From Allomuricauda sp. (GTDB lineage: Bacteria; Bacteroidota; Bacteroidia; Flavobacteriales; Flavobacteriaceae), in the NCBI GenBank assembly GCA_028282265.1, contig JANQIH010000295.1, forward strand, positions 12,254 to 76,253: a stretch of 64,000 bases of DNA, in the 5' to 3' direction. This document shows positions 32,402 to 63,125 of the stretch, in pieces (within the stretch, counting starts at the first letter, position 1; the number at the start of each line of letters is the position of its first letter). The notes beneath the pieces were generated by a model that saw only the letters and a list, made by a program, of their open reading frames with translations, was not told the origin of the DNA and ran no database searches. The position numbers and the translations under genes were made by a program.

Positions 32402-37123
<4,722 letters not shown>

Positions 37124-37134
<11 letters not shown>

Positions 37135-38596
37135 AAAGGTTTACATAAAGTCATTATGGTTTGGGTTGTTTTATCTGATGTCGGTGGTATTGGCAGCATT
37201 TTCATGTAAACCACGCCCCAAGGCAAAACCAGTGGAAAAACCCAATATTGTTTTGATCAATGTGGATGACTTAGGTTGGAAGGATGTAGGATTTATGGGC
37301 AGTATGTATTATGACACTCCCAACCTGGACGCCTTTGCCGAGCAAGGAATGGTCTTTACCAACGCCTACGCGGGGGCTGCGAATTGCGCTCCTAGCCGGG
37401 CGTGTTTAATTTCGGGGTGGAACACTCCACGACACGGGGTCTATACGGTAAGTCCGTCGGAGCGGGGTGATAAAAGAACACGCCAACTGATACCCACTAA
37501 AAACACCGATCATCTTGGCAATATGGTTTATACACTACCGGAGATGCTTAAATCTGCCGGCTATGTGACTGCAAATTTTGGTAAATGGCATGTTGGATCG
37601 GACCCAGGTGAGCAGGGTATTGACCATAATATTGGTGGAAGTCATCGTGGCAATCCAGGAAAGGATGGATATTTCTCTCCCTATAATATAGACTTTATCG
37701 AAAATGGACCAGATGGCGAATACCTTACCGATAGATTAACACAGGAAGCAATTTCATTCATAAAAAAGAACAAGGATACTTCATTTTTTGCCTACATACC
37801 CTTCTACACCGTACACACACCTATCCAAGGAAAAGAATCATGGATAGATAGGTACCGGTTGAAAGAAGGTATTGACGGACAAGATAATCCAACCTATGGT
37901 GCTATGGTCAGCGCTATGGATGAAAATGTGGGAAGACTGTTGAATACGTTGGATGAATTTCATCTTGCCGAGAATACACTGGTGATTTTCACTTCCGATA
38001 ACGGGGGTATACGTTCCATTTCCAATCAGGATCCCCTGCGGGCCGGAAAAGGTAGCTACTATGAGGGAGGTATCCGCGTTCCCTTGGTATTGCGATGGCC
38101 CGAAAAAGTGGCATCTGGAATCAAAAACAAAAACCCGGTAAGCAACTTGGACATCTACCCTACCCTGCAAGAAATTGCAGGTCCTAACCAAAAGGCAGTG
38201 AATTTGGACGGATTGAGTCTGGTAGGCCAATTTCAAAATCCTTTAAAATGGGAAAGAGATCTTTATTTTCATTTCCCCATTTACCTTCAAGCTTACAACA
38301 AAACAGAAGATGATAGCCGTGACCCTCTGTTCAGAACCCGGCCAGGTTCGGTCATCATTTCTGGCCAATGGAAACTTCACCAATATTTTGAAGATAGTGC
38401 CTTGGAACTTTATAACCTGAATAACGATTTGGGTGAAACTTATAATTTGATTGATGAAAACCCTGAAATGGCCAAAGAACTTCTGGCGAAATTAGATTTA
38501 TGGAGAATGGCAAATAGGGCACCAATTCCCACCGAAAATAATCCTGATTATGATGCAGCTTTTGAAAAACAGCAAGCCAATACTATTACAGATTAG
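37124..38596 (+). CDS. S1 sulfatase (CAPSR), lipoprotein; paralog of the preceding gene
   Basis: PNIVLINVDDLGWKD, CAPSRACLISG, GKWH, YLTDRLT, TSDNGG, YEGGIRVP; lipobox AFSC. Confidence 0.93.
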
Positions 38597-40481
38597 GTTT
38601 CTCCCAAAAGTAGGATTGGTGGTTCCCATTTTGTTTATGGTAATGGCTTCATGTAAAAAGGAAGAGGTAGAAAAACCCAACATTCTATGGTTGGTAGTTG
38701 AAGATATGACCCCTTATCTTTCATTTTATGGCAACGCGTATACCACTACCCCAACATTGGATTCCTTGGCCAAAAACAGTATCGTGTTCGATAATGCCTA
38801 TTCCAATGGGGCACAGTGTTCGCCTGCCAGAAGTACTTTGATTTCAGGTGTATATGCACCCATGTTGGCTACCGATTGGCACCGCGAGGCACGACCAGTT
38901 CCACAAGAATTTTACTATCCCCTTTATCTCCGAGAAGCTGGGTATTACACTTCGAATAACAGCAAAACCGACTATAATGACAGTAAACGTCCTGAAAATT
39001 TATGGGACAAGTCCAAAAAAGGGGCAACCTATGTCGACCGTCCGAATAAATCACAACCATTTTTCTCAGTTTTTAATTACAATGGCACACACACTCAACG
39101 TATTGCAACCCGTGATACCTTAAATAGAAAACCCAGATACATACATCGAGACTCGATAACTTTACCAGCCTATCTCCCTGACATCCCCGAAATTCGGGAT
39201 GATATTGCCTGGCATTATGATGCCGTATCCAAAATGGATTTATGGGTCAAGAAGCGCCTGCAGGAGTTGAAAGATTCTGGTGAGCATGAAAATACCATCA
39301 TTTTTTTCTATTCAGATCATGGTGGTTGTCTTCCAAGGGCCAAAGCCTTTGTATATGAAGTAGGAACCAAAATCCCATTATTGGTTCACTTCCCTGAAAA
39401 ATTTAAACATCTGGCCGGGGTTAAGACAACTGGTCGCGATGACCGTTTGGTAGGTTTTGTAGACTTCGCACCCACCATTTTCAACTTATTGGATGTTGAA
39501 ATTCCAGATTTTATGATGGGACAACCATTCCTGGGAAAGAACTTGCCCCAACCTAAAAAGGAACTGTTTCTTTATCGTGCCAATCAAGAGCAGAATTTCA
39601 TTCCATCACGAGCTTTGACTGATGGCAAATATCGATTGATATGGAACTTCAATACGGCCCATCCCAATGGGGTCAGACAGTCATATCAATGGCAAATGCC
39701 CTCTTACCAGGCTTGGGACCAAGCTTTTATACAAGGAAAAACGGATTCCCTTCAAAGCGTGTTTTGGAACCCGATGGAACCTTTGGAGTTTTATGATACC
39801 GAGAATGATTTCTACGAGGTGAAAAACCTAGTAAACGCTCTTGAACATCAAGAGAGACTAAATTCAATGAAAGAAAAGTTGCTTTCCTTCATGAAAGAGA
39901 ACAAAGATCTGGGGTTATATCCATGGTCCATGCGGAGAAAGGAAGATAGCATTCCATTTTATAATTATGTCCGAAATACAAATCAAAACGTATCAGCCGT
40001 AATCGACGCAGCGGCCCTGGCCAGCATGGCCAAACCCTCGGATAAGGCTTTGCTAATGGAAAACCTGAAAAGCGAAGTTCCCGCAATTCGATATTGGGGT
40101 GTCATGGGCTTATTGCAACTATTTACGCATCACAAACTGGAAAAAATCCCAGACCAAATTGTTTCAATTTTCCAAAACCCAAAAGAGGAAACCGAAATAC
40201 GTTTGATAGCTGCAGAACTTTTGGTAAAGCACGGTAATAATAAGGATGCCTTGAACTATATTCTTCAGCAGGTAAAAGACAACCATTTTACTGTTTTTTC
40301 AGTGCTCCAAAATCTAGGAAGTAAGGCAAAGCCCCTTGAAAAAGAATTGCTAGAATTGGAAGATAACCCAAGGCTGAAGCAATTCTATATTCGTTCTGCA
40401 CTTATTAATACAGGGTATTACAAGTATCAAAACCTATTCAAAACAAGAGAACATGATTTAGGCTATCAACACGACAAATAA
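38550..40481 (+). CDS. S1 sulfatase (CSPAR) with a C-terminal HEAT-like helical extension, lipoprotein
   Basis: PNILWLVVED, CSPARSTLISG, YSDHGG, EFYD; about 140 extra C-terminal residues with PAIRYWGVMGL and EIRLIAAELL helices; lipobox MASC. Confidence 0.9.
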   Translation: MMQLLKNSKPILLQIRFLPKVGLVVPILFMVMASCKKEEVEKPNILWLVVEDMTPYLSFYGNAYTTTPTLDSLAKNSIVFDNAYSNGAQCSPARSTLISGVYAPMLATDWHREARPVPQEFYYPLYLREAGYYTSNNSKTDYNDSKRPENLWDKSKKGATYVDRPNKSQPFFSVFNYNGTHTQRIATRDTLNRKPRYIHRDSITLPAYLPDIPEIRDDIAWHYDAVSKMDLWVKKRLQELKDSGEHENTIIFFYSDHGGCLPRAKAFVYEVGTKIPLLVHFPEKFKHLAGVKTTGRDDRLVGFVDFAPTIFNLLDVEIPDFMMGQPFLGKNLPQPKKELFLYRANQEQNFIPSRALTDGKYRLIWNFNTAHPNGVRQSYQWQMPSYQAWDQAFIQGKTDSLQSVFWNPMEPLEFYDTENDFYEVKNLVNALEHQERLNSMKEKLLSFMKENKDLGLYPWSMRRKEDSIPFYNYVRNTNQNVSAVIDAAALASMAKPSDKALLMENLKSEVPAIRYWGVMGLLQLFTHHKLEKIPDQIVSIFQNPKEETEIRLIAAELLVKHGNNKDALNYILQQVKDNHFTVFSVLQNLGSKAKPLEKELLELEDNPRLKQFYIRSALINTGYYKYQNLFKTREHDLGYQHDK

Positions 40482-47119: not shown

Positions 47120-48781
47120 TTACCAAAGTAAGGCATAAACTACTGTCAAAATAATCATTATTGCAAATGCCCCTATATTGAACAACTTGCTCGTTTTAAA
47201 AGTATCCGTATCTATAGGTATCCCTTTGGCATCATCGACTCCCTTATTTTGGAAATAACTGATTAAAACAATAACAAGCAACGTGATTAGACATGTCAAT
47301 CCCATTTGATCCATCCATGGAAGTGTGGGAAACATCGGCTCGAGGGAACTTCCAGCGGCCCAACCTTTTGGGCCAATCTTAAAGAACATTGCCACAGGTA
47401 TAGATGCGAGTACTCCAATCACAGCACCTCTGTTGGTGGTCTTTTTCCAGAAGAGACCGGAAAGGAACACGGCCAAAATTCCGGGACTTACTATCCCGGT
47501 ATACTCCTGAATGAACTGAAACGCTTGGTCCAATCCTCCCAAAAGGGGTGCAATAAAGACCGCGATCAACAAAGAAACGGCGGCCGAAAGCCTCCCTACG
47601 CCTACGGTGGACTTGTGGTCTGCGTTCCTGTTTATATACTGTCGGTAGATGTCCATTGTAAAAATAGTGGAGGTTGAGTTCAACATGGATGCCAAAGAGG
47701 ATACAATGGCCGCGGCCAGAGCTGCAATAGCCAAGCCCTTTAAGCCCGTCGGCAAAAACTGCATCAACCAAGGATAGGCCTTATCCGAAGCTCCTGCAGC
47801 AGGAATGTTCATTTGGCCTTGTTCGCCCAAAACTGCTAGAACTTCTGGATTTTCTGTAATCACATAAGCTGCGATTCCAGGTATCACCACAATCAATGGG
47901 ATTATCAACTTTAACACTGCTGCAAAGAGAATTCCCTTTTGGGATTCCTTCAATGACTTTGCCGCCAAAGTTCGCTGGATAATATATTGGTTAAAGCCAA
48001 AATAGTAGAGGTTGGCCACCCAAAGCCCTCCCACAAGTACCCCTATGCCAGGTAGGTTGACATACTCTGGATTACTTTTATCCAAAATCATATCGAAATG
48101 TCCCGGAGCGAACTCGTAAACTTTTTTGAGGCCTGCCATGGGGCCATTCCCATCTGAAACGGTGTCCAAAGCAAGATATGTGGTCACCAATCCGCCCAGT
48201 ACCAAAAAAACAACCTGTATGATATCGGTCCAAGCGACAGCAGATAGCCCCCCGTACAATGAATAGGCTGCGGCAAACAGTGCCAGGCCAATAATTGCAT
48301 ATAGCAAATCAACCCCTAAAATGGTCTCCAATGCAAGACCTCCTAAATACAGGACCGATGTGAGGTTTACAAAAATGTAAAGTCCAATCCAGAAAACGGC
48401 GAGGATGGTCTTTAGGTTGGTTGAAAACCGTTTCTCGACAAACTCGGGAATGGTATAAAGTCTCTTCTCGATGAATATGGGAAGAAAGTATTTCCCAACG
48501 ATGAGCAGTGTCAATGCCCCCATCCACTCATAGGAGGCAATGCCAAGACCCAGGGCAAAACCAGACCCGGACATCCCGATAAACTGCTCTGCAGATATGT
48601 TGGCAGCAATCAACGAAGCGCCTATCGCCCACCAGGGCAACGACTTACTGGCCAGGAAGTAATCCTCGGCTGTTTTTTGTTGACCTTTTTTAGTTCTAGA
48701 GACCCAAAGGCCAATGACCAAAATCAGCAGGGCATAAATAATAAAAACAAGGTAATCCCAGAATTCAAAGCTGTTTTGCAT
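47120..48781 (-). CDS. Sodium/galactose symporter (vSGLT-like; start reassigned to 48781)
   Basis: YFLASKSLPWWAIGASLIAANISAEQFIGMSGSG, IASYEWM, FNQYIIQRTLAAK, SSLASMLNS; last gene of the gal cluster. Confidence 0.93.
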   Translation of the reverse strand: MQNSFEFWDYLVFIIYALLILVIGLWVSRTKKGQQKTAEDYFLASKSLPWWAIGASLIAANISAEQFIGMSGSGFALGLGIASYEWMGALTLLIVGKYFLPIFIEKRLYTIPEFVEKRFSTNLKTILAVFWIGLYIFVNLTSVLYLGGLALETILGVDLLYAIIGLALFAAAYSLYGGLSAVAWTDIIQVVFLVLGGLVTTYLALDTVSDGNGPMAGLKKVYEFAPGHFDMILDKSNPEYVNLPGIGVLVGGLWVANLYYFGFNQYIIQRTLAAKSLKESQKGILFAAVLKLIIPLIVVIPGIAAYVITENPEVLAVLGEQGQMNIPAAGASDKAYPWLMQFLPTGLKGLAIAALAAAIVSSLASMLNSTSTIFTMDIYRQYINRNADHKSTVGVGRLSAAVSLLIAVFIAPLLGGLDQAFQFIQEYTGIVSPGILAVFLSGLFWKKTTNRGAVIGVLASIPVAMFFKIGPKGWAAGSSLEPMFPTLPWMDQMGLTCLITLLVIVLISYFQNKGVDDAKGIPIDTDTFKTSKLFNIGAFAIMIILTVVYALLW

Positions 48782-48786
48782 AATTA

Positions 48787-49818
48787 TTATCGGTGTTTGA
48801 TGGTATTTCGAAGTTTCTCTTCCCATTTCCACGCGGACATCATGGCCTGATCAAGACTTAGGTCCGCTTTCCATCCAAGGAATTCGTTTGCTCTTGAGAC
48901 ATCTGCATAGGCTTCTACCACATCCCCTTCCCTTCTGGGACCTATTTCATAATTCAGTTTGGTACCTGATACCCGTTCAAAGCTATCAATGACCTCATAT
49001 ACCGAATGGCCCTTGCCCGTTCCAAGGTTAAATACCTCATAACGGTTCCGTTCCTCACCTTTCAAAGTCCTTTGCAATGCAGTTACATGGGCCTTGGCCA
49101 AATCTACTATATGGATATAGTCTCGAATACAGGTGCCATCAGGAGTAGGGTAGTCGTCTCCAAAGACTATAAGTTTTTCATGTCGGCCCATAGCGGTCTG
49201 GGTTATAAAAGGGACCAAGTTTTGCGGAGTACCTATAGGCAGTTCACCTATCTCCAAAGAGTCATGGGCTCCGATGGGATTGAAGTATCGTAGAATTACA
49301 GTTGAAAGTTTTTTATTTGCCCGTAGTGCATCAGCCAATATCTCCTCACCTATTCGTTTCGTGTTCCCGTAGGGAGATTTGGCTTTCTTCAAAGGTGCTT
49401 CCTCTGTGATTGGCAAGGTATCTGGCTCACCGTACACCGTGCAGGAAGAACTAAAAACAATAGGAATATCCCTGTCAAGCATTTCAACTTCCTGAAGCAA
49501 GTATATCAACGGAGTCAAGTTGTTGTCATAGTATAACAAAGGCCGTGAAACGCTCTCTCCTACTGCCTTGGAAGCTGCGAAATGGATTATCCCATCAATA
49601 TCCCTGTAGTTGTGGAACAATGATTTTACCGACATCCGCTCATTCAGGCTTAATCTCTCAAAAAAAGGTTTCTTGCCACAGGCACGCTCTATGCCCCTTA
49701 GTACTTCAATGGAGGAATTTGACAGGTCATCGACCACTAAGACCTTAAAACCCTCTTCCAGCAGCTCCACTGTAGTGTGGGAGCCAATGTAGCCCAGTCC
49801 TCCTGTTACCAATATCAT
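48787..49818 (-). CDS. galE: UDP-glucose 4-epimerase
   Basis: ILVTGGLGYIGSH, HFAASKAVGES, FSSSCTVYG, PYGNTK, LRYFNPIGAH, RDYIHIVDLA. Confidence 0.97.
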   Translation of the reverse strand: MILVTGGLGYIGSHTTVELLEEGFKVLVVDDLSNSSIEVLRGIERACGKKPFFERLSLNERMSVKSLFHNYRDIDGIIHFAASKAVGESVSRPLLYYDNNLTPLIYLLQEVEMLDRDIPIVFSSSCTVYGEPDTLPITEEAPLKKAKSPYGNTKRIGEEILADALRANKKLSTVILRYFNPIGAHDSLEIGELPIGTPQNLVPFITQTAMGRHEKLIVFGDDYPTPDGTCIRDYIHIVDLAKAHVTALQRTLKGEERNRYEVFNLGTGKGHSVYEVIDSFERVSGTKLNYEIGPRREGDVVEAYADVSRANEFLGWKADLSLDQAMMSAWKWEEKLRNTIKHR

Positions 49819-49820
49819 GA

Positions 49821-50945
49821 CTAGTTGCTTTTTAAATATTGTTGTTTGCCCAGCACGGTTCTAAATCCGAGATGTTCAGCTCCAGAATCCATACTGGTGG
49901 CCATGCGGGCACTGATTCGATAACTGGCGCAATAGCTGTCACTGCACAAAAAGGACCCTCCTTTTATGACTTTTTCCTGTTGAAAAGGATTGTTTGGGTC
50001 AAATGCCTTATCCGCACCTTTAGGGTTGACCAAAGTACCTGCCGAGGCAACTTCTGGATAATAGGTTGTGTTGTACCAATCACTTGTCCATTCCCAAACA
50101 TTTCCTGCCATATCGTACAATCCAAATTGGTTGGGAGGATAGCTTTTGACAGGGGCTCTCAGTTCAAAACCGTCTTCCAAGGTGTTGTTGACAGGAAATT
50201 CTCCCTCCCATGTATTGGCTTGAACACTTAGCCGCCCAAAATCATTGCCCCAAAAGAAAACAGCTTCTTCTTGCCCGCCACGGGCAGCATACTCCCATTC
50301 CGCTTCTGTAGGAAGTCGTCTACCTGCCCATTCACAATAGGCCAGTGCATCCTCATAGGCGATTTGCACCACGGGATGGTCATCTTTTTCTTCTATGGAA
50401 CTATCTGGGCCATTGGGATGCCTCCAATCGGCCCCTATCTTCCACTGCCACCATTGTGAATAGTCATAGAGATTGGGTACACTTGTTTTTGTCTTTTTGA
50501 AAACAAGAGCCCCAGGTTGTAATATTGAATCATGGGGTTTGGGTGTATTTGGTGGCAGTTGTTTCCTCATTTCCTCCCACTCAATTTTTCTTTCGGCAAC
50601 GGTTACATATCCCGTTGCTTTGACGAATTTGGAAAACTGTTCATTGGTAACTGGGTGTTCATCCATAAAAAAACCATCCACTGCAACTTTATGTCTTGGT
50701 CTTTCATGTGCCATCGCCATAGTATCTTGTTCAACAGCTCCTTGATAGAATTCACCACCCGAAATCCAAATCATACCATTTGGGACTTCAACTCCCGATG
50801 GCAAACTCGTAATAAGTTCGACTTCACTTTTGGATAAGGGCAATTCCAATTTGGCTTTGGAGTTTTGCTTGCATCCAATAATCGGTAGCACCATAATGAA
50901 AATAGGATAAAAACAATATCTGGCCATCATTATACCTTTGTTCAC
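49821..50945 (-). CDS. Formylglycine-generating enzyme (FGE/SUMF1), lipoprotein
   Basis: FGE-sulfatase motifs HPVVQIAYEDA.AYC.WAG.RLPTEAEWEYAARGG, GLYDMAGNVWEW, KGGSFLCSDSYCASYRISAR (C-x4-C core), HLGFR; lipobox IIGC. Confidence 0.9.
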   Translation of the reverse strand: MNKGIMMARYCFYPIFIMVLPIIGCKQNSKAKLELPLSKSEVELITSLPSGVEVPNGMIWISGGEFYQGAVEQDTMAMAHERPRHKVAVDGFFMDEHPVTNEQFSKFVKATGYVTVAERKIEWEEMRKQLPPNTPKPHDSILQPGALVFKKTKTSVPNLYDYSQWWQWKIGADWRHPNGPDSSIEEKDDHPVVQIAYEDALAYCEWAGRRLPTEAEWEYAARGGQEEAVFFWGNDFGRLSVQANTWEGEFPVNNTLEDGFELRAPVKSYPPNQFGLYDMAGNVWEWTSDWYNTTYYPEVASAGTLVNPKGADKAFDPNNPFQQEKVIKGGSFLCSDSYCASYRISARMATSMDSGAEHLGFRTVLGKQQYLKSN

Positions 50946-50959
50946 TTGTATCAGTTTTG

Positions 50960-51970
50960 TTAGATTTTGTTCGTTGAGTCCCTTAATACCAATTCCGGTT
51001 GTATCACCACATTTTCACTTTTTTTGTTGGGCCTGATCAATCTATCTTTCATCATTGCAAAAGATATTTCGCCTATTCTTTCAGCATGCTGTGACACCAC
51101 ACTTAAACCGGGATTAGAGGACTGTGCCATCGGACCATTTGTAAAACCCATCACAGATACTTTTTTTGGAACCTCAAAGCCCAACTGCTGTAAGGTGTTC
51201 ATTGTATAGATTGCAGAAAGTTCATCAGCTGCCAATATGCCATCGAAGCTATGTTCCATCATTGCCCTTAAGAGTAATTCTTTGAAACCCTCGTAGCTCC
51301 CAAACTCTATTAAGAAAGGAGAGTTTTGTTTATGTTTCCTAGACTCAAGTGCTGCAAGATAACCGTCTTTACGAGAGCGCCCCACACTTGTGTTGGCTAT
51401 GGGTGATAGAAAGGCAATTTTTTGTCATCCTGATTTATAAAGATGGTTAGCGGCAAGATAGGCTCCTTCAAAATCATCAATGGTGCCGGAATCAGCTGTG
51501 AGTTCCTTATGCACGCGATCGAACATGACTATGGGTACACCATACGCCATCAATTTTTTAATATCACTGTAATCACTGGATTTTTGGGTTCCTTTTGAAA
51601 AAGAAATCAAAATTCCGTCAACACTATGTTTGATTAAGGATAATAGGTTTTTATACTCGTTTCCTCTTCGATCATTGGAGAAAGTGACCAATACGGTATA
51701 TCCGTGTTTTGAAGCCTCTTTTTCAATACCATGCAAAACTTTGGCAAAAAAATCATCGATGACATTGGGCACTACAACACCAACTGTCTTGGTTATTCTT
51801 GACTTCAAACTACGTGCGTAGTGATTTGGAACATACCCTAATGCCTCTGCAGCTTCCCTAACTCTTTTCTTGGTTCTTACACTTATTTCCGAACTATTAC
51901 TGAGCGCTTTGGATATCGTTGAAGGCGAAACTTCCAAGATTTCTGCCATTTCTCTAATCGTTGTCATCAT
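50960..51970 (-). pseudogene. LacI-family repressor (GalR-like) interrupted by one in-frame TGA at 51425-51427
   Basis: N-terminal HTH (TIREMAEILEVSPSTISKAL); reads ...HLYKSG*QKIAFLSPIANTSVGRSRKDGY... in one frame; 1011 nt would give about 336 aa, a normal LacI length. Confidence 0.88.
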
Positions 51971-51977
51971 AGGTGTA

Positions 51978-53024
51978 TTAATTAGGGTGTTGACTGTAGT
52001 GTTTATGGGAAAGATTCCTTAGGGTATTCGCAGCCTGTTCAGCAGTAATATCACGTTGTGGATTGGCAAACATCTCGTAGCCCACCATAAATTTCTTTAC
52101 GGTCGCAGAACGTAACAGGGGCGGATAGAAAGACATGTGAAAATGCCACTCTTCATGTGGTTGTCCATCTGTGGGCGATTGATGTATGCCCATGGAATAG
52201 GGAAATGAAGTTTTAAAAAGGTTGTCATATTTAGTGGTCACCTCTTTTATAATTTGGGCAAAGCTCGATTTTTCTTCATCAGAGACCTGTCCAATATATT
52301 GCAAATGTCGTTTTGGGGCAATCATCACTTCGTAGGGCCATACTGCCCAAAAGGGAACTAAAGCCAAAAAATGGTCATTCTCAATAACTATTCGCTCCCT
52401 AGCTTCCATTTCTTGTCCTAGATAATCTTTCAAAAGACTACGTTGATTCTCTTGCCAGTAAGCTAACTGGAAATCACATTTTTTCTGAACTTCTTGCGGA
52501 ATGGAAACTTGCGCCCATATCTGCCCGTGAGGATGGGGATTGCTACAGCCCATCAATGCTCCTTTATTTTCAAAAATCTGAACATAGTTGATATTTTCCA
52601 TTGCACCCAGTTCATGATATTCCTTTTGCCAAATAGAAATTACTTCTTCAATTCCGGTAACCTCCATTTGGGATAAGGTCAGCGAGTGGTCTGGAGAAAA
52701 ACAAATGACTTTGCAAATACCTGTTTCACCCCTGGCTCTGAAAAGTCCCTCATTTATTTCAGTGCTTGGGGTATTTGGGAGTAGGGCGGAAAAATCGTTG
52801 GTGAAACTATAGGTTGAAGTATATTGGGGATTAACTTCACCATTAGCGCGGGTATTGCCAGGACACAAATAGCAATTTTCATCATATTCAGGCCGGTTTT
52901 CGACTGCGGTCTTTTCTTGTTTCCCTTGCCAAGGGCGTTTGGTTCTATGGGGTGACACCAAAACCCATTCACCGGTCAAGATATTAAACCTACGATGCGG
53001 ATGTTCATTTAGATTCAGCTTCAT
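51978..53024 (-). CDS. galT: Galactose-1-phosphate uridylyltransferase
   Basis: [64 protein letters not shown]. Confidence 0.97.
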
Positions 53025-54141
53025 TGGTTTGTTTAATTATGGTGGTTCCGTCGCTGGGGACTGACACAAAATGGGACAAATTAATGCCAAAAGTCTTTTC
53101 ATAAGCCATGGAAACTCTCTCTACATATCCTTCTACGGCATCCTCATGAATTATATTTAGGGTACAGCCTCCAAAACCGCCCCCTACCATTCTGGACCCC
53201 AATATCTCTTTGAACTCTTTTGAAAATTCTACCAAAAAATCAAGCTCTGCACAGCTTACCTCGTATTTCTGGCTCTGTCCCTTGTGGGAATTATACAAAA
53301 TTTCACCCAATGCCATAAGGTCATTTCTTTTTAGGGCTTCTGCTGCCGTTAACACCCTTCGATTTTCTTCCAAAACATAGGTGCACCTTTTGTAGCGAAC
53401 GTCCCCAAGCATAGCCTTGCATTCCTCTATCATCTCTAAGCTAATGTCCCTGAAAGAGTTCTTTGTGCCAAAATGGTCCGCAACAATTTTTAGTCCAGAA
53501 GCGCTTTCTTCACGTCTGGTATTATAGCCACTGGTGGCCAGGTTGTGCGTCACATTGGTATTTAGCATTAAAATAACATAGGGACTCAATTTTGTAGGGA
53601 TATATTCAAATTCAAGAGATTGGCAATCGAGCAACATGGTATGGTCCTTTTTTCCCATGACCGATGAAAACTGATCCATAATACCACATTTGGTTCCCAC
53701 AAAGTTGTGCTCCGCACGTTGGCTCAGTTTGATAATTTGCCAGTTATCCAGACCCAATTCAAACAGCTCATTTAATCCGTACGCCAGTCCGCACTCAAGT
53801 GCTGCTGATGAACTGACACCTGAACCTACCGGTACATCGGTATGCATTTCACAATCAAAGCCCTTTAATCCTTGAGTAAGCAATTGTAACTCATGCAACA
53901 CCCCAAGCACATAGTTGTGCCAGCTTTCGGTTCCAGGCTTCAGACTGAAAAGGTCGGCAATCAAAACAGTATCAAATCCCTTGCTTTTTATCCTACAAGT
54001 GGTTTTGGTTCCATTGATTGAAAGCCTCATATAAATCCGTTTGTCTATAGCCGCGGGCAGTACATAACCATCATTATAATCGGTGTGCTCACCAATTAGA
54101 TTAATTCTTCCTGGTGATGAAATTATAAGTTCTTTTATCAA
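53005..54141 (-). CDS. galK: Galactokinase (TTG start)
   Basis: [49 protein letters not shown]. Confidence 0.97.
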
Positions 54142-54274: not shown

Positions 54275-55447
54275 CTAAAAATCTTGAGCCTCATCTGGTC
54301 CAGGGTTCGCATAACGAGGGTCCTTGGCTCTTATGTATACATCTCCATCGGGTTTAATAGTCACCTCCAATGGAACTATTGTTGTTCCTTGTTCATTTAT
54401 AGTCTGTGCCGTTTCAGAAAGGTCTCTTCCTTGAATCCCTTCTGATGGAACAGGAGGTACATTACCATTATAAAAAGCCGTACACCACCATCTTCCTAGC
54501 CGGTCTTGAAATGGAGTACCATGCCCTAAAAATCTGCCTACAAACCTTCTTGGCCCGTACGGACCCAAGATATTATCCGAAAGACAGTAATACAGATTGT
54601 ACGAACCCTTACGCATCTCATCGGTCGACCATGCCGTTCCAAAATGGACGTATTTATCCCCAATTTTACGCAGGGTTGCCCCCTCATGACCAATAACACG
54701 GTTTTCGGGGTCAATACGGACCGGTTCTGCAGCCAATCCAGAAAAGTTAGGTTTTATTGGAGCTATTTTGGTATTTGCCCAAAGTAGGTACCAAGTACCA
54801 TCATCATCTTGGAACAAAGATGGGTCATGTTTGGTACGCATATCATCTTCCAAGGGAAAGGAGAATTTGTCAGAAATCAACTTTCCATTCTCGGTGATTG
54901 CGAGGTTTGCTCCCCTTTCCACCGGTGCAGGGGATGTATGTACAAAAACCCACTTGCCATCAATTTGATACAACTCAGGAGCCCATAGTCGCCAATCCTT
55001 CGGGTCGCTCTCATATTTTTCTGGAAATAGGCCCTTCCAATACCCCTGACCTAAAGAAAAAGGCACACCTACATACTCCCAATCCAAAAGGTCTTTACTT
55101 TTCCATACATTGATATCTGGCCCTACGATACTTGGGGTACCGTATAATTCTTGGTTTTGATTGTCCAAACCAGTGTTGTAAGGTTCCGACTTTTCCCTTG
55201 GATCGTTTTGTATTGGTGTGGTTCCCGTTAGGTAATAGTAATCATCGTCGGCCAGATATATGTAAGGGTCTCGAATCCATCCTTGTTTAAGATAAATGGC
55301 TTTGTCGTGGTCTTTAAAAGCACTCATTTTGAAATTCTCAACAACAGATTTCGTTTGGGCACTTTCATTGATGGTTTTCTCTTTACAGGAAAAAAAACAG
55401 CACAACACAAGAAGAAGAAGAAGAAGAATAATTCTTAAACTAAGCAT
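54275..55447 (-). CDS. GH43 glycoside hydrolase, lipoprotein
   Basis: WIRDPYI, WAPELY, HDPSLFQDDDGTWYLLW, HEGA, GHGTPF; lipobox FFSC. Confidence 0.83.
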   Translation of the reverse strand: MLSLRIILLLLLLVLCCFFSCKEKTINESAQTKSVVENFKMSAFKDHDKAIYLKQGWIRDPYIYLADDDYYYLTGTTPIQNDPREKSEPYNTGLDNQNQELYGTPSIVGPDINVWKSKDLLDWEYVGVPFSLGQGYWKGLFPEKYESDPKDWRLWAPELYQIDGKWVFVHTSPAPVERGANLAITENGKLISDKFSFPLEDDMRTKHDPSLFQDDDGTWYLLWANTKIAPIKPNFSGLAAEPVRIDPENRVIGHEGATLRKIGDKYVHFGTAWSTDEMRKGSYNLYYCLSDNILGPYGPRRFVGRFLGHGTPFQDRLGRWWCTAFYNGNVPPVPSEGIQGRDLSETAQTINEQGTTIVPLEVTIKPDGDVYIRAKDPRYANPGPDEAQDF

Positions 55448-55449
55448 AC

Positions 55450-56616
55450 CTATTCAGTAATGGAGAATTTGTAAATGCAAGTGGAAGTATACATCTCCTC
55501 TGGTTCCAATGTTGTACTGGGAAAATTTTCTTGATTAGGGGAATCGGGAAAATGTTGGGTTTCCAAACAAAATGCACCTCTAAAGTCATATGATTTACCT
55601 CCTTTGCCCTTTTTCCCATTTAAAAAATTGCCCCCGTAAAACTGCAGTCCAGGTTCATCGGTATAAACCTCCATTGTCCTACCAGATTCCGGTTCAATTA
55701 CCTTAGCGGCCAAAACCAAGCCATCATCATTTACAGGATCTTGGTTCAATACAAAGTTATGGTCATAGCCAAGGCCAAACTCCAGTTGCTCGTTCGGTAT
55801 TTCCAAGTCCCGACCAATAGGTTTTGGCGAGATGAAATCGAATGGCGTACCTGCAACCCCAGCAATTTCCCCCGTCGGTATCAGCCCACTATCCACAGGT
55901 GTAAAATGGTCTGCATTAATCATCAAAACATGATCGTTTATCGTACCATTGCCCTGTCCCTTCAAATTAAAAAAAGAGTGGTGGGTAAGGTTGACCACCG
56001 TTTTTTTATCAGTTTTGGCTTTGTAGTTAATTACCAATTCGTTCTCTTCATTCAGCAAGTAATTCACTTTGACGGATAGATTACCAGGATACCCCTCTTC
56101 CCCATCTGGTGAAGTCCTTGAAAAGGTGATGGTATTTTCAGTATGCGAATCCACATCCCAAACCACGCTTTCAAAACCCACATCTCCTCCATGCAAATGG
56201 TTTTCACCATTGTTGGTCGCTAGAGTGTATTCATTTCCATCTAGAGAAAACCTGCCCTTTGCGATTCGGTTACCGTAGCGACCAATGGTGGCCCCAAAAT
56301 ATTTTTCTTGCGCATTTTGGAAGCCTCTCAGGGTATTGAATCCAAGTACAATATCCTCGAATTTTCCATCTCTATCAGGAGTAAATAATGATATCAGCCG
56401 TTGTCCATAATTGGTAAAGGTCACCTCAATACCTTTACTGTTTTTCAACATATAAATACCGACTTTTTTGCCATCAATTATAGTATCGAAATCTACTGCT
56501 TTTGCCATAGTGAGCGTTGAATCTTTAAGTTTTGCCTTTTCAGTATTTTTTGGAGTTTGCTTGCAAGCCAAGGTTGAAAATAGCGTTATCCCAATTAGTA
56601 AAGTGGTTGTTTTCAT
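55450..56616 (-). CDS. galM: Aldose 1-epimerase (mutarotase), lipoprotein-type signal (start reassigned to 56616)
   Basis: GATIGRYGNRI, NHLHGG, EEGYPGNL, NLTHHSFFNL, GYDHNF, GLQFYGGN, FCLETQHFPDSPN; lipobox TLAC. Confidence 0.95.
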   Translation of the reverse strand: MKTTTLLIGITLFSTLACKQTPKNTEKAKLKDSTLTMAKAVDFDTIIDGKKVGIYMLKNSKGIEVTFTNYGQRLISLFTPDRDGKFEDIVLGFNTLRGFQNAQEKYFGATIGRYGNRIAKGRFSLDGNEYTLATNNGENHLHGGDVGFESVVWDVDSHTENTITFSRTSPDGEEGYPGNLSVKVNYLLNEENELVINYKAKTDKKTVVNLTHHSFFNLKGQGNGTINDHVLMINADHFTPVDSGLIPTGEIAGVAGTPFDFISPKPIGRDLEIPNEQLEFGLGYDHNFVLNQDPVNDDGLVLAAKVIEPESGRTMEVYTDEPGLQFYGGNFLNGKKGKGGKSYDFRGAFCLETQHFPDSPNQENFPSTTLEPEEMYTSTCIYKFSITE

Positions 56617-56948
56617 TCTTTTGATTTTGTATTGTAGGAAACCCATGTTTTTTTTCTTTCTTGTCTGGATAAAGCTGTCATTTCGGTGGCCAAGCCTTTA
56701 TCTCCCTGTGATTTCATCCACGAAGCTAACTCTTCCTGCAATCGCTGCTTGGTCGATTCATATTCAGGGTTTTCCGCCAGATTGACCATTTCAAGTGGGT
56801 CGCTCCCAATGTCATACAATTCTTCAGAAGGTCGAAATTTATACTTCGATACCATTACATCTTTATCCTGCTTGCAGGAAGTGAAACAAAATAAAAAAGC
56901 AATTAAAAACCCGTCCAGTATATGAATGTGGTTAAAACGAAATCTCAT
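56613..56948 (-). pseudogene. Internally deleted sulfatase: lipoprotein signal fused in frame to the sulfatase C-terminus
   Basis: MRFRFNHIHILDGFLIAFLFCFTSCKQDKDV joined directly to YKFRPSEELYDIGSDPLEMVNLAENPEY...LASWMKSQGDKG; the whole catalytic core is absent. Confidence 0.75.
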
Positions 56949-57084: not shown

Positions 57085-58638
57085 TTGAAAATTACGACGT
57101 TGAAAAGACAAGTTATACTATTATCTCTTTTTTCTTTTGTTGCCCTCGTCTCCTGTAAAGAGAAAAAAACCGAAACTGAGGTTGAACGAACAATAGCCAA
57201 ACCGAACATCATCTTTTTGTATGTGGATGATTTAGGTTATGCCGATGTAAGTTGTTACGGAGCAAAAGGCGTTGAAACCCCAAATATAGATTTCTTGGCT
57301 AAAAACGGAATCAAATTCACGGACGCCCACAGTTCCGCTGCAACGTGCACTCCTTCTCGATATTCTTTTTTGACCGGGAATTACGCTTTCAGGAATAAGG
57401 CTGTCATTTTACCTGGAGATGCACCACTTTTAATCGACACCGCTACGGTCACGCTGCCGAAAATGTTGAAAAAAGCAGGTTACACAACTGGTGTAGTCGG
57501 CAAATGGCATTTAGGGCTGGGTGTTGGTCAAGTAGACTGGAATACGAAAATCAGTCCGGGGCCCAATGAAATCGGTTTTGACTATAGTTTTTTGTTGCCC
57601 GCAACAGGTGACCGCGTACCTACCGTTTTTGTGGAGAATGGATATGTGGTGGACCTTGAACCTGAAGACAACCTAATGGTGAGTTATGGAGCGCGAATTG
57701 GTGATCGCCCTGTTGGATATGAGCATCCTGAACTCCTAAAACAAAAAGCAGACCGCCAGCATAGCGAAACCATAATCAACGGCGTGAGTCGTATCGGGTA
57801 CATGGCGGGTGGCCAATCTGCGGAATGGATTGATGAGGATTTCCCATACGTCTTCAATAAAAAAGCAACCGATTTTATAACTGCCAACAAGGAAAATCCA
57901 TTCTTTTTGTTCTACTCGTTTCATGATATACATGTACCTCGAATCCCACATGATAATTTTAAGGGAAAAAGCACCATGGGGCCTAGGGGTGATGCCATTG
58001 TCCAAGTCGATTTTGTGGTCGGTGAAATTGTAAAAAGTCTTGAGGAAAATGGTATTCTGGAAAACACACTAATCATTTTTACTAGCGATAATGGTCCTGT
58101 GCTCAATGACGGCTATGAAGACCAAGCTGTTGAATTGATAGGAGAGCACCATCCTTCTGGACCATTCAGGGGAGGTAAGTATAGTATTTATGAAGCCGGA
58201 AGCCGGGTTCCTACCATCACTTATTGGCCTGGAACCATTGAACCCATGGAATCGAATGCTATGATGAATCAGCTGGATATCTATGCTTCTTTGGCAGGAC
58301 ATCTAAATATTGAACTATCAGATGATATCATCGACAGCGAAAACCATTGGAAAGCCTGGATAGGAAAATCAACAAAAGGGCGCAAAGCAATGCTCGAAGA
58401 AGGTTTTACCCTAGCCTACCGAGAAGGCGATTGGAAATACATTCGGCCTTTACCTGAAGGAAAGGAGATTCCCACTTGGATGGAAAATAAAAAAGAAATA
58501 GAATCTGGTTTGATGAAAGTACCACAACTATTCAATTTAAAGGACGATTTGGGTGAGCAAATCAATTTGGCAGAATCCCACCCTGAAAAAATTGAGGAAT
58601 TTGAAAAAAGCCTAAAACAGCTAATAGATAAAAAATGA
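57085..58638 (+). CDS. S1 sulfatase (CTPSR), S1_15-like, lipoprotein (TTG start)
   Basis: PNIIFLYVDDLGY, ATCTPSRYSFLTG, GKWHLGLG, ATGDRVP, DIHVPR, TSDNGP; lipobox LVSC. Confidence 0.92.
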   Translation: MKITTLKRQVILLSLFSFVALVSCKEKKTETEVERTIAKPNIIFLYVDDLGYADVSCYGAKGVETPNIDFLAKNGIKFTDAHSSAATCTPSRYSFLTGNYAFRNKAVILPGDAPLLIDTATVTLPKMLKKAGYTTGVVGKWHLGLGVGQVDWNTKISPGPNEIGFDYSFLLPATGDRVPTVFVENGYVVDLEPEDNLMVSYGARIGDRPVGYEHPELLKQKADRQHSETIINGVSRIGYMAGGQSAEWIDEDFPYVFNKKATDFITANKENPFFLFYSFHDIHVPRIPHDNFKGKSTMGPRGDAIVQVDFVVGEIVKSLEENGILENTLIIFTSDNGPVLNDGYEDQAVELIGEHHPSGPFRGGKYSIYEAGSRVPTITYWPGTIEPMESNAMMNQLDIYASLAGHLNIELSDDIIDSENHWKAWIGKSTKGRKAMLEEGFTLAYREGDWKYIRPLPEGKEIPTWMENKKEIESGLMKVPQLFNLKDDLGEQINLAESHPEKIEEFEKSLKQLIDKK

Positions 58639-59827: not shown

Positions 59828-61402
59828 TTATTGCAGTTCCTGAGCTCTAGGGTAGTTGTCTAAAATGGCCTCTAGATTTTTTACGACCTTCTTATTCTTT
59901 TTTGCCACGTTTTTAGTTTCTAACGGGTCTTCCTTATAGTCGTATAACTCGTAGGCCACATCATCGTAATTTTTGGTATTCGTCCAGCGTACCATTCGGT
60001 AACGTTGATTTCTGATGGCTTCACCTACGTATCCTCCCTTTTTAAAACAATGGTAGACATGGTCTTTTATCTCCATATCTGGCTTTGAGATTGAGGGTGC
60101 CAAACTAATGCCATCCAACAATTGGATTCCCTTGGGTTGGGGTAATTTCGCCAGATCTACCAAGGTTGGATAGATATCTACCGTTTCCATAAACTGTTGT
60201 GTGGTTGTTTTCTTCTGTGTTATCCCTGGAACCCGCATCAAGAAGGGAATTCGTGTGGGCTGTTCGTAATTGGTATGCTTCGTCCAAATACCATGATCGC
60301 CCAAGTGCCAACCGTGATCACCCCAAAGCAGTACAATGGTGTTCTTATCCAATCCCAAACGTTCCAACTCATTCATGACCTTGCCCAATTGGGCATCCAT
60401 ATAACTGACACTGGCATAGTATCCATGAATAAGGTTACGTTTTAGCTCTTCGGAATACTCCGCATCTTTGTCTTCGGGTACAGGAAAAAATTGTGTGATT
60501 TCACCGCCTCTTTTCTGGGCCATTTTGGGGGAATCTTCAGGGAATTCCTCAAATTCTGGCATTGGAAGCTTTGCTGGATCGTACATATCCCAATATTTCT
60601 TTGGCACGGAAAAAGGTAAATGGGGTCGTGCAAAGCCAACGGCCATCATAAAGGGTTTTTCTCCCTTACCCAATTTTCGCAATCGGTCAATGGCATGGCG
60701 CGCTATTCGGCCATCGGCATAAGCATCGTCAAGTACATCAGGCATTTCCCAGGCCGCACCCCTAGGTAATTGTCTATTTGGAGGTAAATCTTTGATGTAC
60801 TTCCTACTGTTCTCAAAAAAAGCTTCCTCGCGGGTCAGTTCACCTTCCTTACTTTCTGGAACAATATATTCAATGACTTTATCCTTCCGAGATGGCACAC
60901 TCCAAGAAAGTTCGTCATCCCCTTGTCCATGTCCAACATGGTATACTTTTCCCATGGATTCCACATGGTAGCCGTTTTCCTTAAAATACTGGGGAAGCGT
61001 GACGGCTTCTGGCATCGTTTTTCGAAAATTCCTCCCAAAACCATAAATACCAGAACTGGTCGAGCGCATGCCCAACATCAAATTATAGCGGGAAGGTCCA
61101 CATACAGCTTGATTAACATAGGCTCGATTAAATTGTAGTCCACTAGCTGCCAACTTGTCAATATTTGGACTAATGGCGACACCATCTCCATAACTACCCA
61201 GCGTAGGTTTTAAATCATCAACCAGAATCATTAAAATATTTGGCTTGGTCTCTTCATTGCTTTCTTGTCCATACATATTTATGAACGTCGCCAATAAAAA
61301 CAAAAGGCCTGTTAGATATTTCTTAATTTTTTTAGTCTTAAAAGCATTCAAGCCTAATATGACGACCAAACGTAGTACTACAGATACAAATTTATTTTTC
61401 AC
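59828..61402 (-). CDS. S1 sulfatase (CGPSR), iduronate-2-sulfatase/choline-sulfatase-like (S1_7-like)
   Basis: PNILMILVDDL, VCGPSRYNLMLG, GKVYH, GF.RPHLPF, WGDHGWHLGDH, WTKHT, ELYD. Confidence 0.9.
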   Translation of the reverse strand: MKNKFVSVVLRLVVILGLNAFKTKKIKKYLTGLLFLLATFINMYGQESNEETKPNILMILVDDLKPTLGSYGDGVAISPNIDKLAASGLQFNRAYVNQAVCGPSRYNLMLGMRSTSSGIYGFGRNFRKTMPEAVTLPQYFKENGYHVESMGKVYHVGHGQGDDELSWSVPSRKDKVIEYIVPESKEGELTREEAFFENSRKYIKDLPPNRQLPRGAAWEMPDVLDDAYADGRIARHAIDRLRKLGKGEKPFMMAVGFARPHLPFSVPKKYWDMYDPAKLPMPEFEEFPEDSPKMAQKRGGEITQFFPVPEDKDAEYSEELKRNLIHGYYASVSYMDAQLGKVMNELERLGLDKNTIVLLWGDHGWHLGDHGIWTKHTNYEQPTRIPFLMRVPGITQKKTTTQQFMETVDIYPTLVDLAKLPQPKGIQLLDGISLAPSISKPDMEIKDHVYHCFKKGGYVGEAIRNQRYRMVRWTNTKNYDDVAYELYDYKEDPLETKNVAKKNKKVVKNLEAILDNYPRAQELQ

Positions 61403-61412
61403 ATTTATTTAA

Positions 61413-62846
61413 TTAATCAACAAAAACAACATTTTTAGAATACCAGCTTAGAATCGTTTCGGTATATTCTTTTACCCTATCCAAATCTTTACCAGCTAGG
61501 TTAGTTTGTTCCTGTGGGTCGTTCTTTAAGTTATACAATTGAGGCCCAGTACCATCTTCATTAACCAAAAGCTTCCAGTCCCCGTCACGCATTGCGAGCT
61601 TCGGCGTCAAAAAATCAGGATTTCCTGGTGTTGGAACATTGGGAAAGTACCAGAAAATGGGTTTCTGCCTTTGCTGGGGCGTTCCTTTTATTGACTGGTT
61701 CAGCGCAATCCCATCCAATTTTGATGAAATTTTATAAAAATCCGTATTTGTGAAATTCATTATCGTAGGAAATAAGTCCATCACAGCTCCCACTGTGGTG
61801 CTATCTACTTTATTTTCTGGCAAATGACCTTTCCACTGTACTATTAAAGGTTCACGTATGCCTCCTTCATACAGACTCCATTTTCGACCTCGTAGATTGC
61901 CTTGACTTGATGGGGGTTGCCCTCCGTTTTTATAATACCGCGGCCAATCGGTTGGGCCATTATCACTTGACATGATGAATATGGTATTTTCCGTCAGGCC
62001 CATATCTTCTATTCCCTGAATCAATCTTCCTACTTGTATATCCGTCTCCTTTAACACAGCAAAAAACTTGGCTTCTTCTTCATCTCTTGCAATAGCCCTA
62101 AATTCTGAAGTCTGTTCTTCGGTAGGTTTAAAGGGATCATGTACATCACCTGGAAAAAAACTTAAGTAAAAAGGCGTGTCTTTATTTCGCTTAATGAATG
62201 CCAATGAACTATCCACATAAATTTCCGTAATGCGATGCTTATCTGTTCTCATGATATTGCCTTTGCCCAATTTGGCACTCATGTCACTCAAAAAATGGTC
62301 GTTATCCAAGATGCGGTCCCCGATTCCCTCAAAACCGACTAAGGACATATCATAACCATAATCGGTGGGGTAAGGTACTTCATTGATATCCCTTCCTCCG
62401 CCCATGTGCCATTTTCCAACTTGAGCAGTGGCGTAGCCATTTTTCTTCAAAAGTCTGGGCAATAATGGCCCTACGGTATCCAAAAAATTGGCCTGTCGTC
62501 GTTCCTTATTGTTCTTTGTGCTGCCCACTACCCCATGAATCCGTCTCCTAAAAGGATACTGACCAGTTATAAAGGCTACCCTTGAGGGTGAACAAACCGG
62601 AGCATTGCTATAAAATTGAGTGAAACGAATTCCGTTTTTGGCCAAGGCATCAAAATTGGGTGTTTCCATTTTTTGATTGCCATAGCAGCTTAAATCCCCA
62701 TAGCCCAGATCATCAATAAAGATGAAAACCACATTTGGAAGTACTTCCTCTTTTGCAGAAGTGGCCATTTTTACTTCCTTAACTTTGTTCATACAACTAA
62801 GGGCAAAAGCCAAGAAGAGCAGGATTCCAAAAATAGTTTTTCCCAT
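61413..62846 (-). CDS. S1 sulfatase (CSPSR), lipoprotein (start reassigned to 62846)
   Basis: PNVVFIFIDDLGYGD, CSPSRVAFITG, GKWHMGG, SSDNGP, YEGGIREP; lipobox ALSC. Confidence 0.92.
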   Translation of the reverse strand: MGKTIFGILLFLAFALSCMNKVKEVKMATSAKEEVLPNVVFIFIDDLGYGDLSCYGNQKMETPNFDALAKNGIRFTQFYSNAPVCSPSRVAFITGQYPFRRRIHGVVGSTKNNKERRQANFLDTVGPLLPRLLKKNGYATAQVGKWHMGGGRDINEVPYPTDYGYDMSLVGFEGIGDRILDNDHFLSDMSAKLGKGNIMRTDKHRITEIYVDSSLAFIKRNKDTPFYLSFFPGDVHDPFKPTEEQTSEFRAIARDEEEAKFFAVLKETDIQVGRLIQGIEDMGLTENTIFIMSSDNGPTDWPRYYKNGGQPPSSQGNLRGRKWSLYEGGIREPLIVQWKGHLPENKVDSTTVGAVMDLFPTIMNFTNTDFYKISSKLDGIALNQSIKGTPQQRQKPIFWYFPNVPTPGNPDFLTPKLAMRDGDWKLLVNEDGTGPQLYNLKNDPQEQTNLAGKDLDRVKEYTETILSWYSKNVVFVD

Positions 62847-63125
62847 AATCAGACAATTTAAGTAGTGTACTACTTGTATAGAAGCATTTTTGATGAATTT
62901 TTCTATAATCCCGTTCATTATTAGGAATAAAATTTTGTTGTCAGGAATATATCATAAAATATTCAGTTTAATCTGTGCCACAAAAAATATGAATGGAGGA
63001 ATTCTTTATTTTCTTCCCAAGATTTAACTATTAAGGTTTCATCAATGTTTTCCAAAACCTTTGTCAAGAGAAGCATTACAAGCAGACCGCCGAAGGTTCG
63101 AATCTTCCAACAATTATCAAAAAAT

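Follow-up and report, generated by a model that had tools for sequence, protein, structure and literature searches.

A predicted lipid-anchored formylglycine-generating enzyme encoded among galactose genes of Allomuricauda sp. may mature sulfatases after their export

A 64,000-nucleotide stretch of DNA from Allomuricauda sp. (hereafter the window, whose positions are used throughout) carries a gene for a formylglycine-generating enzyme (FGE) located among genes for galactose metabolism. We propose that this FGE is a periplasm-facing lipoprotein that would mature Sec-exported sulfatases after their translocation and would be co-transcribed with the galactose (gal) genes, and we assign this reading a probability of about 0.65. 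The proposal builds on a complete catalytic core, a lipoprotein-type signal conserved among homologues, the set of sulfatases and maturases encoded in the genome, and the arrangement of the gal genes. As a protein, the window FGE is an ordinary representative of a large, already annotated group, and no new type of element is found in the window.

The FGE gene (49821..50945, minus strand) encodes 374 amino acids from a GTG start. The public gene call starts at an ATG (50930) located 15 nt downstream of the GTG, resulting in a product of 369 amino acids (P0001). Residues 57–364 match PF03781 (FGE-sulfatase) with an E-value of 6.1e-80; the match covers profile positions 4–254 of 255 and scores 269 bits against a cut-off of 23.3. 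Combining the Pfam envelope with the alignment to human FGE, we place the catalytic domain at residues 57–365 (49851..50777, minus strand). The core of this domain reads GGSFLC334SDSYC339ASYR343ISAR347 and contains the catalytic cysteine pair C334-SDSY-C339 (49929..49946, minus strand). In the alignment, C334/C339 fall on human Cys336/Cys341, and R343/R347 fall on R345/R349. The closest solved relatives are structures of human FGE/SUMF1 (E 1.5e-72 over residues 57–365), and the next-best solved matches are the FGEs of Thermomonospora curvata and Streptomyces coelicolor.

More than 7,997 homologues of the window FGE are found at E ≤ 1e-30. The best 120 of them belong to Flavobacteriaceae, share 60–87% identity with it and are usually annotated as formylglycine-generating enzyme family proteins. 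The cysteine pair is invariant in 44 of 44 aligned homologues and in all of the 120 best-matching ones. The identities GldK, GldJ, EgtB, SenA, PvdO and OvoA were also considered, and on the window FGE none of the six NCBIfam models comes anywhere near its cut-off; the GldK and GldJ models give 159 and 76 bits, with cut-offs of 350 and 458. The GldK, GldJ and EgtB-like proteins of this genome are the products of separate genes and lack the cysteine pair. Because the pair is present, human FGE is the best solved match and the models of the other fold families stay below cut-off, the open reading frame almost certainly encodes a true FGE. An AlphaFold2 model calculated from the 44-sequence alignment was unusable (mean pLDDT 49, pTM 0.47).

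At the N-terminus, residues 1–25 form a predicted signal peptide with a lipobox (…VLPIIG-C25; 50871..50945, minus strand, by translation). The sequence is MNKGIMMARYCFYPIFIMVLPIIG-C25-KQNSK, in which a positive n-region with R9 (R4 from the ATG start) and the h-region YCFYPIFIMVLPII are followed by I-I-G-C25. Between the signal and the domain extends a polar tether of 31 residues (residues 26–56, KQNSKAKLELPLSKSEVELITSLPSGVEVPN; 50778..50870, minus strand, by translation), which varies in sequence among homologues and has a median length of 35 residues. A hydrophobic N-terminus is present in 115 of the 120 close homologues, and the remaining five look like truncated gene calls. In 114 of these 115 signal-bearing proteins, a cysteine closes the hydrophobic segment and a polar stretch comes after it. 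Position −1 is G, S or A in 87/115 and position +2 is K in 78/115, whereas just 16/115 have two or more acidic residues at +2 to +6. This low acidic content hints that the FGE is not surface-exposed.

The same layout extends beyond the family. In a phylum-wide sample, an FGE orthologue is found in 38 of 301 Bacteroidota genomes, and of 20 loci that we read in other families, orders and classes, 19 encode the cysteine pair. The signal-plus-cysteine layout is found in 17 of these 19 proteins; of the other two, one carries a signal of the SPI type and the other lacks a signal. The lipoprotein-type signal is thus general among the sampled Bacteroidota FGEs and not special to the window locus. Since the cysteine that closes the signal stays fixed amid otherwise drifting sequence, we regard the pattern as a signature of lipoprotein processing. 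Its conservation across homologues makes sense only with export, and the window FGE is therefore likely an exported protein. The first-pass annotation of this DNA had credited the protein with an intact GGSxxC-x4-CxxxRxxxR core and a lipobox. C334, C339, R343 and R347 bear out the former; for the latter, IIGC25 does follow the hydrophobic segment, though the strict lipobox pattern misses it at Pro −4.

In several of the other-family FGEs (L099, L100, L101, L103, L105 and L108), we notice a conserved second cysteine motif in the tether, located between the lipobox cysteine and the domain. Examples are DCHSGVPSRFGN, SCMQVPNRFGN and TCMTIPKRLGT. The motif resembles the sulfatase CxPxR with a different spacing, and it is absent from the window FGE. 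It may act as a pseudo-substrate or be the counterpart of human N-terminal Cys50/52.

The genome (3.87 Mb in 312 contigs, 95% complete) encodes 25 sulfatases of at least 250 amino acids, as retrieved by a profile built from the window sulfatases. All of them are Cys-type and carry a hydrophobic (Sec-type) N-terminus, and at least 14 of these N-termini are lipobox-like. A strict twin-arginine motif occurs in none of the 25, despite TatC being encoded. Eight of the sulfatases, all matching PF00884, lie in the window. On the plus strand, four lipobox-bearing sulfatases are encoded at 35629..37134 (CSPSR), 37124..38596 (CAPSR), 38550..40481 (CSPAR) and 57085..58638 (CTPSR). On the minus strand are a CSPSR protein with a Sec-type signal (2756..4357), a CAPSR protein with a lipobox (21715..23193), a CGPSR protein with a signal peptide (59828..61402) and a CSPSR protein with a lipobox (61413..62918).

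Meanwhile, the alternative maturase anSME (TIGR03942) has zero matches in the whole 95%-complete genome. In a family sample consisting of one genome from each of 121 genera, none of the genera has an anSME above the cut-off, and the Bacteroides thetaiotaomicron control was matched in the same search. The first pass had listed eight Cys-type sulfatases (CSPSR ×3, CAPSR ×2, CSPAR, CTPSR and CGPSR) with export signals and no radical-SAM anSME in the window. The motifs match exactly, hydrophobic N-termini are present in 8/8, and the absence of TIGR03942 extends from the window to the genome. A second true FGE is encoded elsewhere (locus L092, 7057–8220; contig C189, 26056–27219, minus strand). This paralogue has 387 amino acids, is 59% identical to the window FGE, and its hydrophobic N-terminus ends in LSYC; its gene is the last of a Sulf-Sulf-FGE run. 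A cytoplasmic maturase, whether an anSME or a signal-less FGE, was not found in the genome.

Sulfatases need to be modified while they are unfolded (PMC5066984). Since the sulfatases of this genome leave the cytoplasm unfolded via Sec, the encoded maturases carry export signals and no anSME is encoded, formation of formylglycine after translocation is the simplest reading, and we consider it probable that the window FGE acts at this stage.

The genes around FGE form a minus-strand run in the order galM, GH43, galK, galT, lacI, FGE, galE and a sodium:solute symporter. FGE starts 14 bp after the LacI gene and ends 2 bp before galE on the same strand, which agrees with its placement between these two genes on the first pass. 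The gaps in the run are 7, 14 and 2 bp and galK/galT overlap, the exception being a 133-bp gap before galK. Intergenic gaps of 2–14 bp leave no room for a separate FGE promoter. A weak scan showed no terminator-like sites on the minus strand from galM to galE, and a sigma-70 promoter and terminator scan together with a search for the Bacteroidota −33/−7 pattern gave nothing above chance near FGE. The gene order of the window recurs unchanged in four contigs of a sister species with an FGE of 87% identity. Based on this arrangement, co-transcription of FGE with the gal genes is likely. A functional control of FGE by galactose is a more doubtful matter, to which we give slightly less than even odds.

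The run begins with galM (55450..56646, PF01263), a mutarotase with a lipoprotein-type signal (…FSTLAC-KQT), and a GH43 lipoprotein (54275..55447, PF04616; …CCFFSC-KEK). They are followed by galK (53005..54141; PF10509, PF00288) and galT (51978..53024; PF01087, PF02744). With lipoprotein-type signals on GH43 and GalM, the run combines steps in the periplasm with the Leloir enzymes of the cytoplasm. The gene of the LacI-family regulator (50960..51970) consists of two Pfam halves in one frame, separated by an in-frame TGA at 51425–51427. In the sister species, LacI is intact with 341 amino acids and has TGT (Cys) at the codon corresponding to the TGA, which may be either a real mutation or an assembly error. 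Downstream of FGE lie galE, encoding UDP-glucose 4-epimerase (48787..49818; PF01370/PF16363), and the symporter gene, the last of the run (47120..48781, PF00474). The likely start of the symporter is 48781 (MQNSFEF…), 5 bp past the galE stop, which fits the 553-aa orthologue of the sister species; the listed GTG start at 48832 would overlap galE by 46 bp. Beside the run, we also observe a large polysaccharide utilization locus with SusC/SusD, a hybrid two-component sensor, GH2, GH27, GH43 and L-arabinose genes.

In order to examine the linkage in relatives, we read the FGE loci of the family sample, in which 55 of the 121 genera have an orthologue; leaving out the window's own genome, this gives 54 genus-level loci. 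FGE lies within two genes of galK, galT or galM in 10 of them. It is divergent from the yicC-gmk-nadD housekeeping genes in another 10, and a sulfatase adjoins it in 13. For at least nine genera of this sample with a gal-linked locus, the linked gene is the sole FGE found. Among the 80 best named FGE loci, 32 are gal-linked, and the gene orders differ between lineages. FGE>galK>galT occurs in Arenibacter, Ulvibacterium, Pseudozobellia, Pricia and some Maribacter, galK>galT>FGE in Flagellimonas/Allomuricauda, galK>galT>LacI>FGE in Croceitalea and the window, and galE>FGE in three uncultured lineages. In a maximum-likelihood tree built from 136 FGEs, gal linkage clusters strongly: it changes 10 times, compared with a mean of 36.5 under shuffled labels. 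The FGE>galK order, which is the largest group, corresponds approximately to one clade with loss inside Maribacter, and the other orders fall in separate clades. Gal linkage is thus mostly inherited within clades; it occurs in several forms and exceeds chance adjacency, which is no proof of selection for co-regulation. We found no paper on FGE-galK linkage in the searchable literature, and subscription-only literature may hold one.

FGE presence also follows the sulfatase content of the genera. An orthologue is found in 48 of the 65 genera with at least five sulfatase hits, versus 7 of the 56 genera with fewer (Fisher p 4e-12). Absence of FGE is called here from six-frame searches. The 17 sulfatase-rich genera without an orthologue are G005, G018, G022, G023, G025, G033, G035, G038, G040, G048, G057, G058, G072, G087, G103, G108 and G114 (loci L197–L206). 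In eight such genera, the PF03781 matches are GldK/GldJ-sized or short proteins, and four of the short FGE-fold proteins, read from four FGE-less genera, have no cysteine pair. The sulfatases sampled from four FGE-less genera (one to three each) are Cys-type with signals.

On the basis of these observations, we propose the following course of events. The FGE would be exported via Sec, lipid-modified on Cys25, and held at the membrane facing the periplasm by its tether of about 30 residues. With copper and O2, it would convert the CxPxR cysteine into formylglycine on sulfatases that have been translocated and are not yet folded, acting as a bacterial counterpart of the FGE in the lumen of the endoplasmic reticulum (ER). 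As many of the sulfatases appear to be lipoproteins too, the enzyme would sit on the same membrane surface as its substrates. A transcription unit galM-GH43-galK-galT-lacI-FGE-galE-symporter would let the FGE supply follow the galactose pathway, and such a tie would suit a consumer of sulfated galactans or arabinogalactans. The first-pass annotation had drawn much the same picture, with a membrane-anchored FGE maturing sulfatases after translocation and maturation capacity tied to galactose release. This picture is supported in part, by the complete FGE, the conserved lipoprotein-type signal, the Cys-type Sec sulfatases, the absence of a cytoplasmic maturase and the recurrent gal link. The novelty that it implied was overstated, since the signal is typical of the sampled Bacteroidota FGEs and not peculiar to this locus.

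Several observations weigh against the proposal, and they are considered here together with the rival explanations. For the regulatory part, the LacI gene of the window is interrupted by its nonsense codon, so that this strain may no longer control the operon by galactose and may express it constitutively. The second FGE resides in a Sulf-Sulf-FGE operon elsewhere in the genome, and 44 of the 54 genus-level loci are not gal-linked, including the ten divergent from yicC-gmk-nadD; in most relatives, FGE has housekeeping or sulfatase genes as neighbours instead. Moreover, gal-linked FGEs cluster on the tree, with 10 changes and an FGE>galK order that is nearly one clade, which makes a passive synteny possible. 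The FGE could then be exported and made constitutively, with its position among the gal genes being inherited or accidental and without regulatory meaning. We give this explanation appreciably less than even odds. It has to account for at least four FGE-gal gene orders in separate clades, and for adjacency to one of the four gal genes, which by a rough estimate would arise by chance in well under 1% of genomes. It also has to account for the sole FGE being gal-linked in at least nine genera and for gaps too short for a promoter of its own.

For the location of the enzyme, the strict PROSITE PS51257-type lipobox pattern fails solely through the proline at −4, and several lysines follow Cys25. 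In addition, M58 opens the FGE domain, and an internal start at this residue may give a cytoplasmic isoform. A distant Bacteroidota genome (G236) encodes two signal-less FGEs beside one signal-less and several Sec-type sulfatases, by which cytoplasmic maturation before export is possible in the phylum. The compartments of FGE and sulfatase match in a mixed manner there: a signal-less pair is adjacent, yet Sec-type sulfatases are also present. At locus L213 of this genome (G236:C6:140700-145600), a signal-less FGE lies 1.8 kb upstream of the signal-less sulfatase (METQQTQTT…CTPSR), in contrast to the predicted export of both enzyme and substrates in the window. An FGE that stays in the cytoplasm, either because its N-terminus does not work as an export signal or because a Met58 start yields a soluble isoform, could modify the sulfatases before Sec, as anSME/AtsB does. 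The soluble nature of the characterised bacterial FGEs (PMC2459300), the invariance of M58 among homologues and the departure from a textbook lipobox would fit such an enzyme. We find it unlikely, as the signal-end cysteine is kept in 114/115 homologues and in other families amid drifting sequence, which would be difficult to account for if the protein were not processed as a lipoprotein. M58 occupies a structural position that is present in human FGE too, where the aligned methionine is no start codon, and the tether resembles lipoprotein linkers in its low complexity and its variation in length. Returning to the periplasmic FGE that we favor, its chemistry poses a difficulty of its own. FGE requires Cu(I) together with reducing equivalents in what is an oxidising compartment, and we saw no reductase nearby that could serve as its partner. 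The recurrent FGE neighbours in relatives, mostly identified by eye, are yicC-gmk-nadD, an M28 peptidase, GH20, trxB and a LytTR regulator, and among them we found no copper-handling or redox partner gene with an obvious link.

A third, unidentified system of sulfatase maturation is inferred for E. coli. If the family relied mainly on such a system, the lipoprotein FGE would have an auxiliary or rescue role. The 17 of 65 sulfatase-rich genera without an FGE orthologue, none of which has an anSME above the cut-off, point in this direction and also weigh on our proposal: the family may have a further route of maturation, and an FGE knockout might then not abolish activity. The PF03781 matches of the eight genera searched and the Cys-type, signal-bearing sulfatases of the four genera sampled are in line with this. 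We nevertheless judge it improbable that FGE plays a minor part, since FGE presence strongly tracks sulfatase richness and two intact FGE genes are retained here, the second within a sulfatase operon; the absences themselves depend on six-frame searches. Finally, the protein might have the FGE fold and serve a function unrelated to sulfatases, as GldK/PorK, GldJ, PvdO and EgtB do. FGE-fold lipoproteins such as GldK and GldJ are well known in Bacteroidota and both occur in this genome, where they are separate genes without the pair. With the catalytic cysteines and flanking arginines present and invariant, the scores of the family models far below their cut-offs, and human FGE as the best solved match, such a function is very improbable for the window protein.

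Sulfated algal polysaccharides are degraded mainly by marine Flavobacteriaceae, and no S1 sulfatase works without formylglycine. Should maturation be periplasmic, the activity of these sulfatases would be limited by the periplasmic supply of copper and oxygen, and the membrane surface would become the common site of the enzyme and its substrates. Marine sulfatases are usually co-expressed in E. coli with an actinobacterial FGE located in the cytoplasm, a practice that would then depart from the native route, which may explain the poor installation of formylglycine in some subfamilies. Meanwhile, the recurrent FGE-gal linkage offers a simple regulatory idea for matching sulfatase activation to substrate supply. 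More broadly, and only tentatively, we suggest that aerobic Bacteroidota may form formylglycine outside the cytoplasm by a lipid-anchored FGE. In several flavobacterial lineages, the sole FGE would be wired into a Leloir operon, so that galactose from sulfated galactans would set the capacity for active sulfatases.

The maturase anSME (AtsB, ChuR) gives the same product as FGE, formylglycine on sulfatases. It is an unrelated radical-SAM enzyme, cytoplasmic and O2-independent, which acts before export and is absent from this genome. It is the system of anaerobic Bacteroidota such as Bacteroides thetaiotaomicron. PorK/GldK and GldJ are established periplasm-facing lipoproteins of Bacteroidota with the FGE fold, which take part in type IX secretion and gliding (PMC12421860). 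These proteins indicate that the FGE fold is routinely exported and lipid-anchored in the phylum. They have large insertions and no catalytic cysteines, whereas the window FGE has the cysteine pair.

The characterised prokaryotic FGEs, namely those of Thermomonospora curvata (6S07) and Streptomyces coelicolor (2Q17/6MUJ) and Mycobacterium tuberculosis Rv0712, share the fold (E-values of 4e-69 to 5e-62), and we expect the same Cu(I)/O2 chemistry and the same CxPxR substrates. They have about 300 amino acids and begin at the domain, whereas the window FGE adds a signal, a lipobox and a tether. These enzymes are described as soluble and the human enzyme as ER-associated (PMC2459300). A specialist preprint of 2026 describes formylglycine formation only as co-translational. 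We found no statement in the searchable literature on the location or site of action of a flavobacterial or Bacteroidota FGE, and subscription-only literature may differ.

Human FGE/SUMF1 (PDB 1Y1E, 2AIJ, 5SSX) has the same catalytic cysteine pair and flanking arginines, and the similarity extends over the whole domain. The window FGE lacks partners of the human structural disulfides, having I345 and T363 at their sites, and keeps C204; in human numbering, we take these sites to be C346 (I345), C365 (T363) and C235 (C204). The window FGE also contains a 19-residue insertion that human FGE lacks (KIEWEEMRKQLPPNTPKPH; residues 119–137, window 50535–50591), which is kept in flavobacterial homologues with the consensus EIDWEEMKKQLPxGTPKPH. 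The topology is analogous, as the human enzyme sits in a compartment that its substrates enter unfolded through a Sec-type channel. Formylglycine formation in the periplasm by a lipid-anchored FGE, if true, would be the hitherto undemonstrated prokaryotic equivalent of ER maturation. The two enzymes would then differ in how they are held in place: human FGE is retained in the ER by an N-terminal extension, and the window FGE by a predicted N-terminal lipid anchor.

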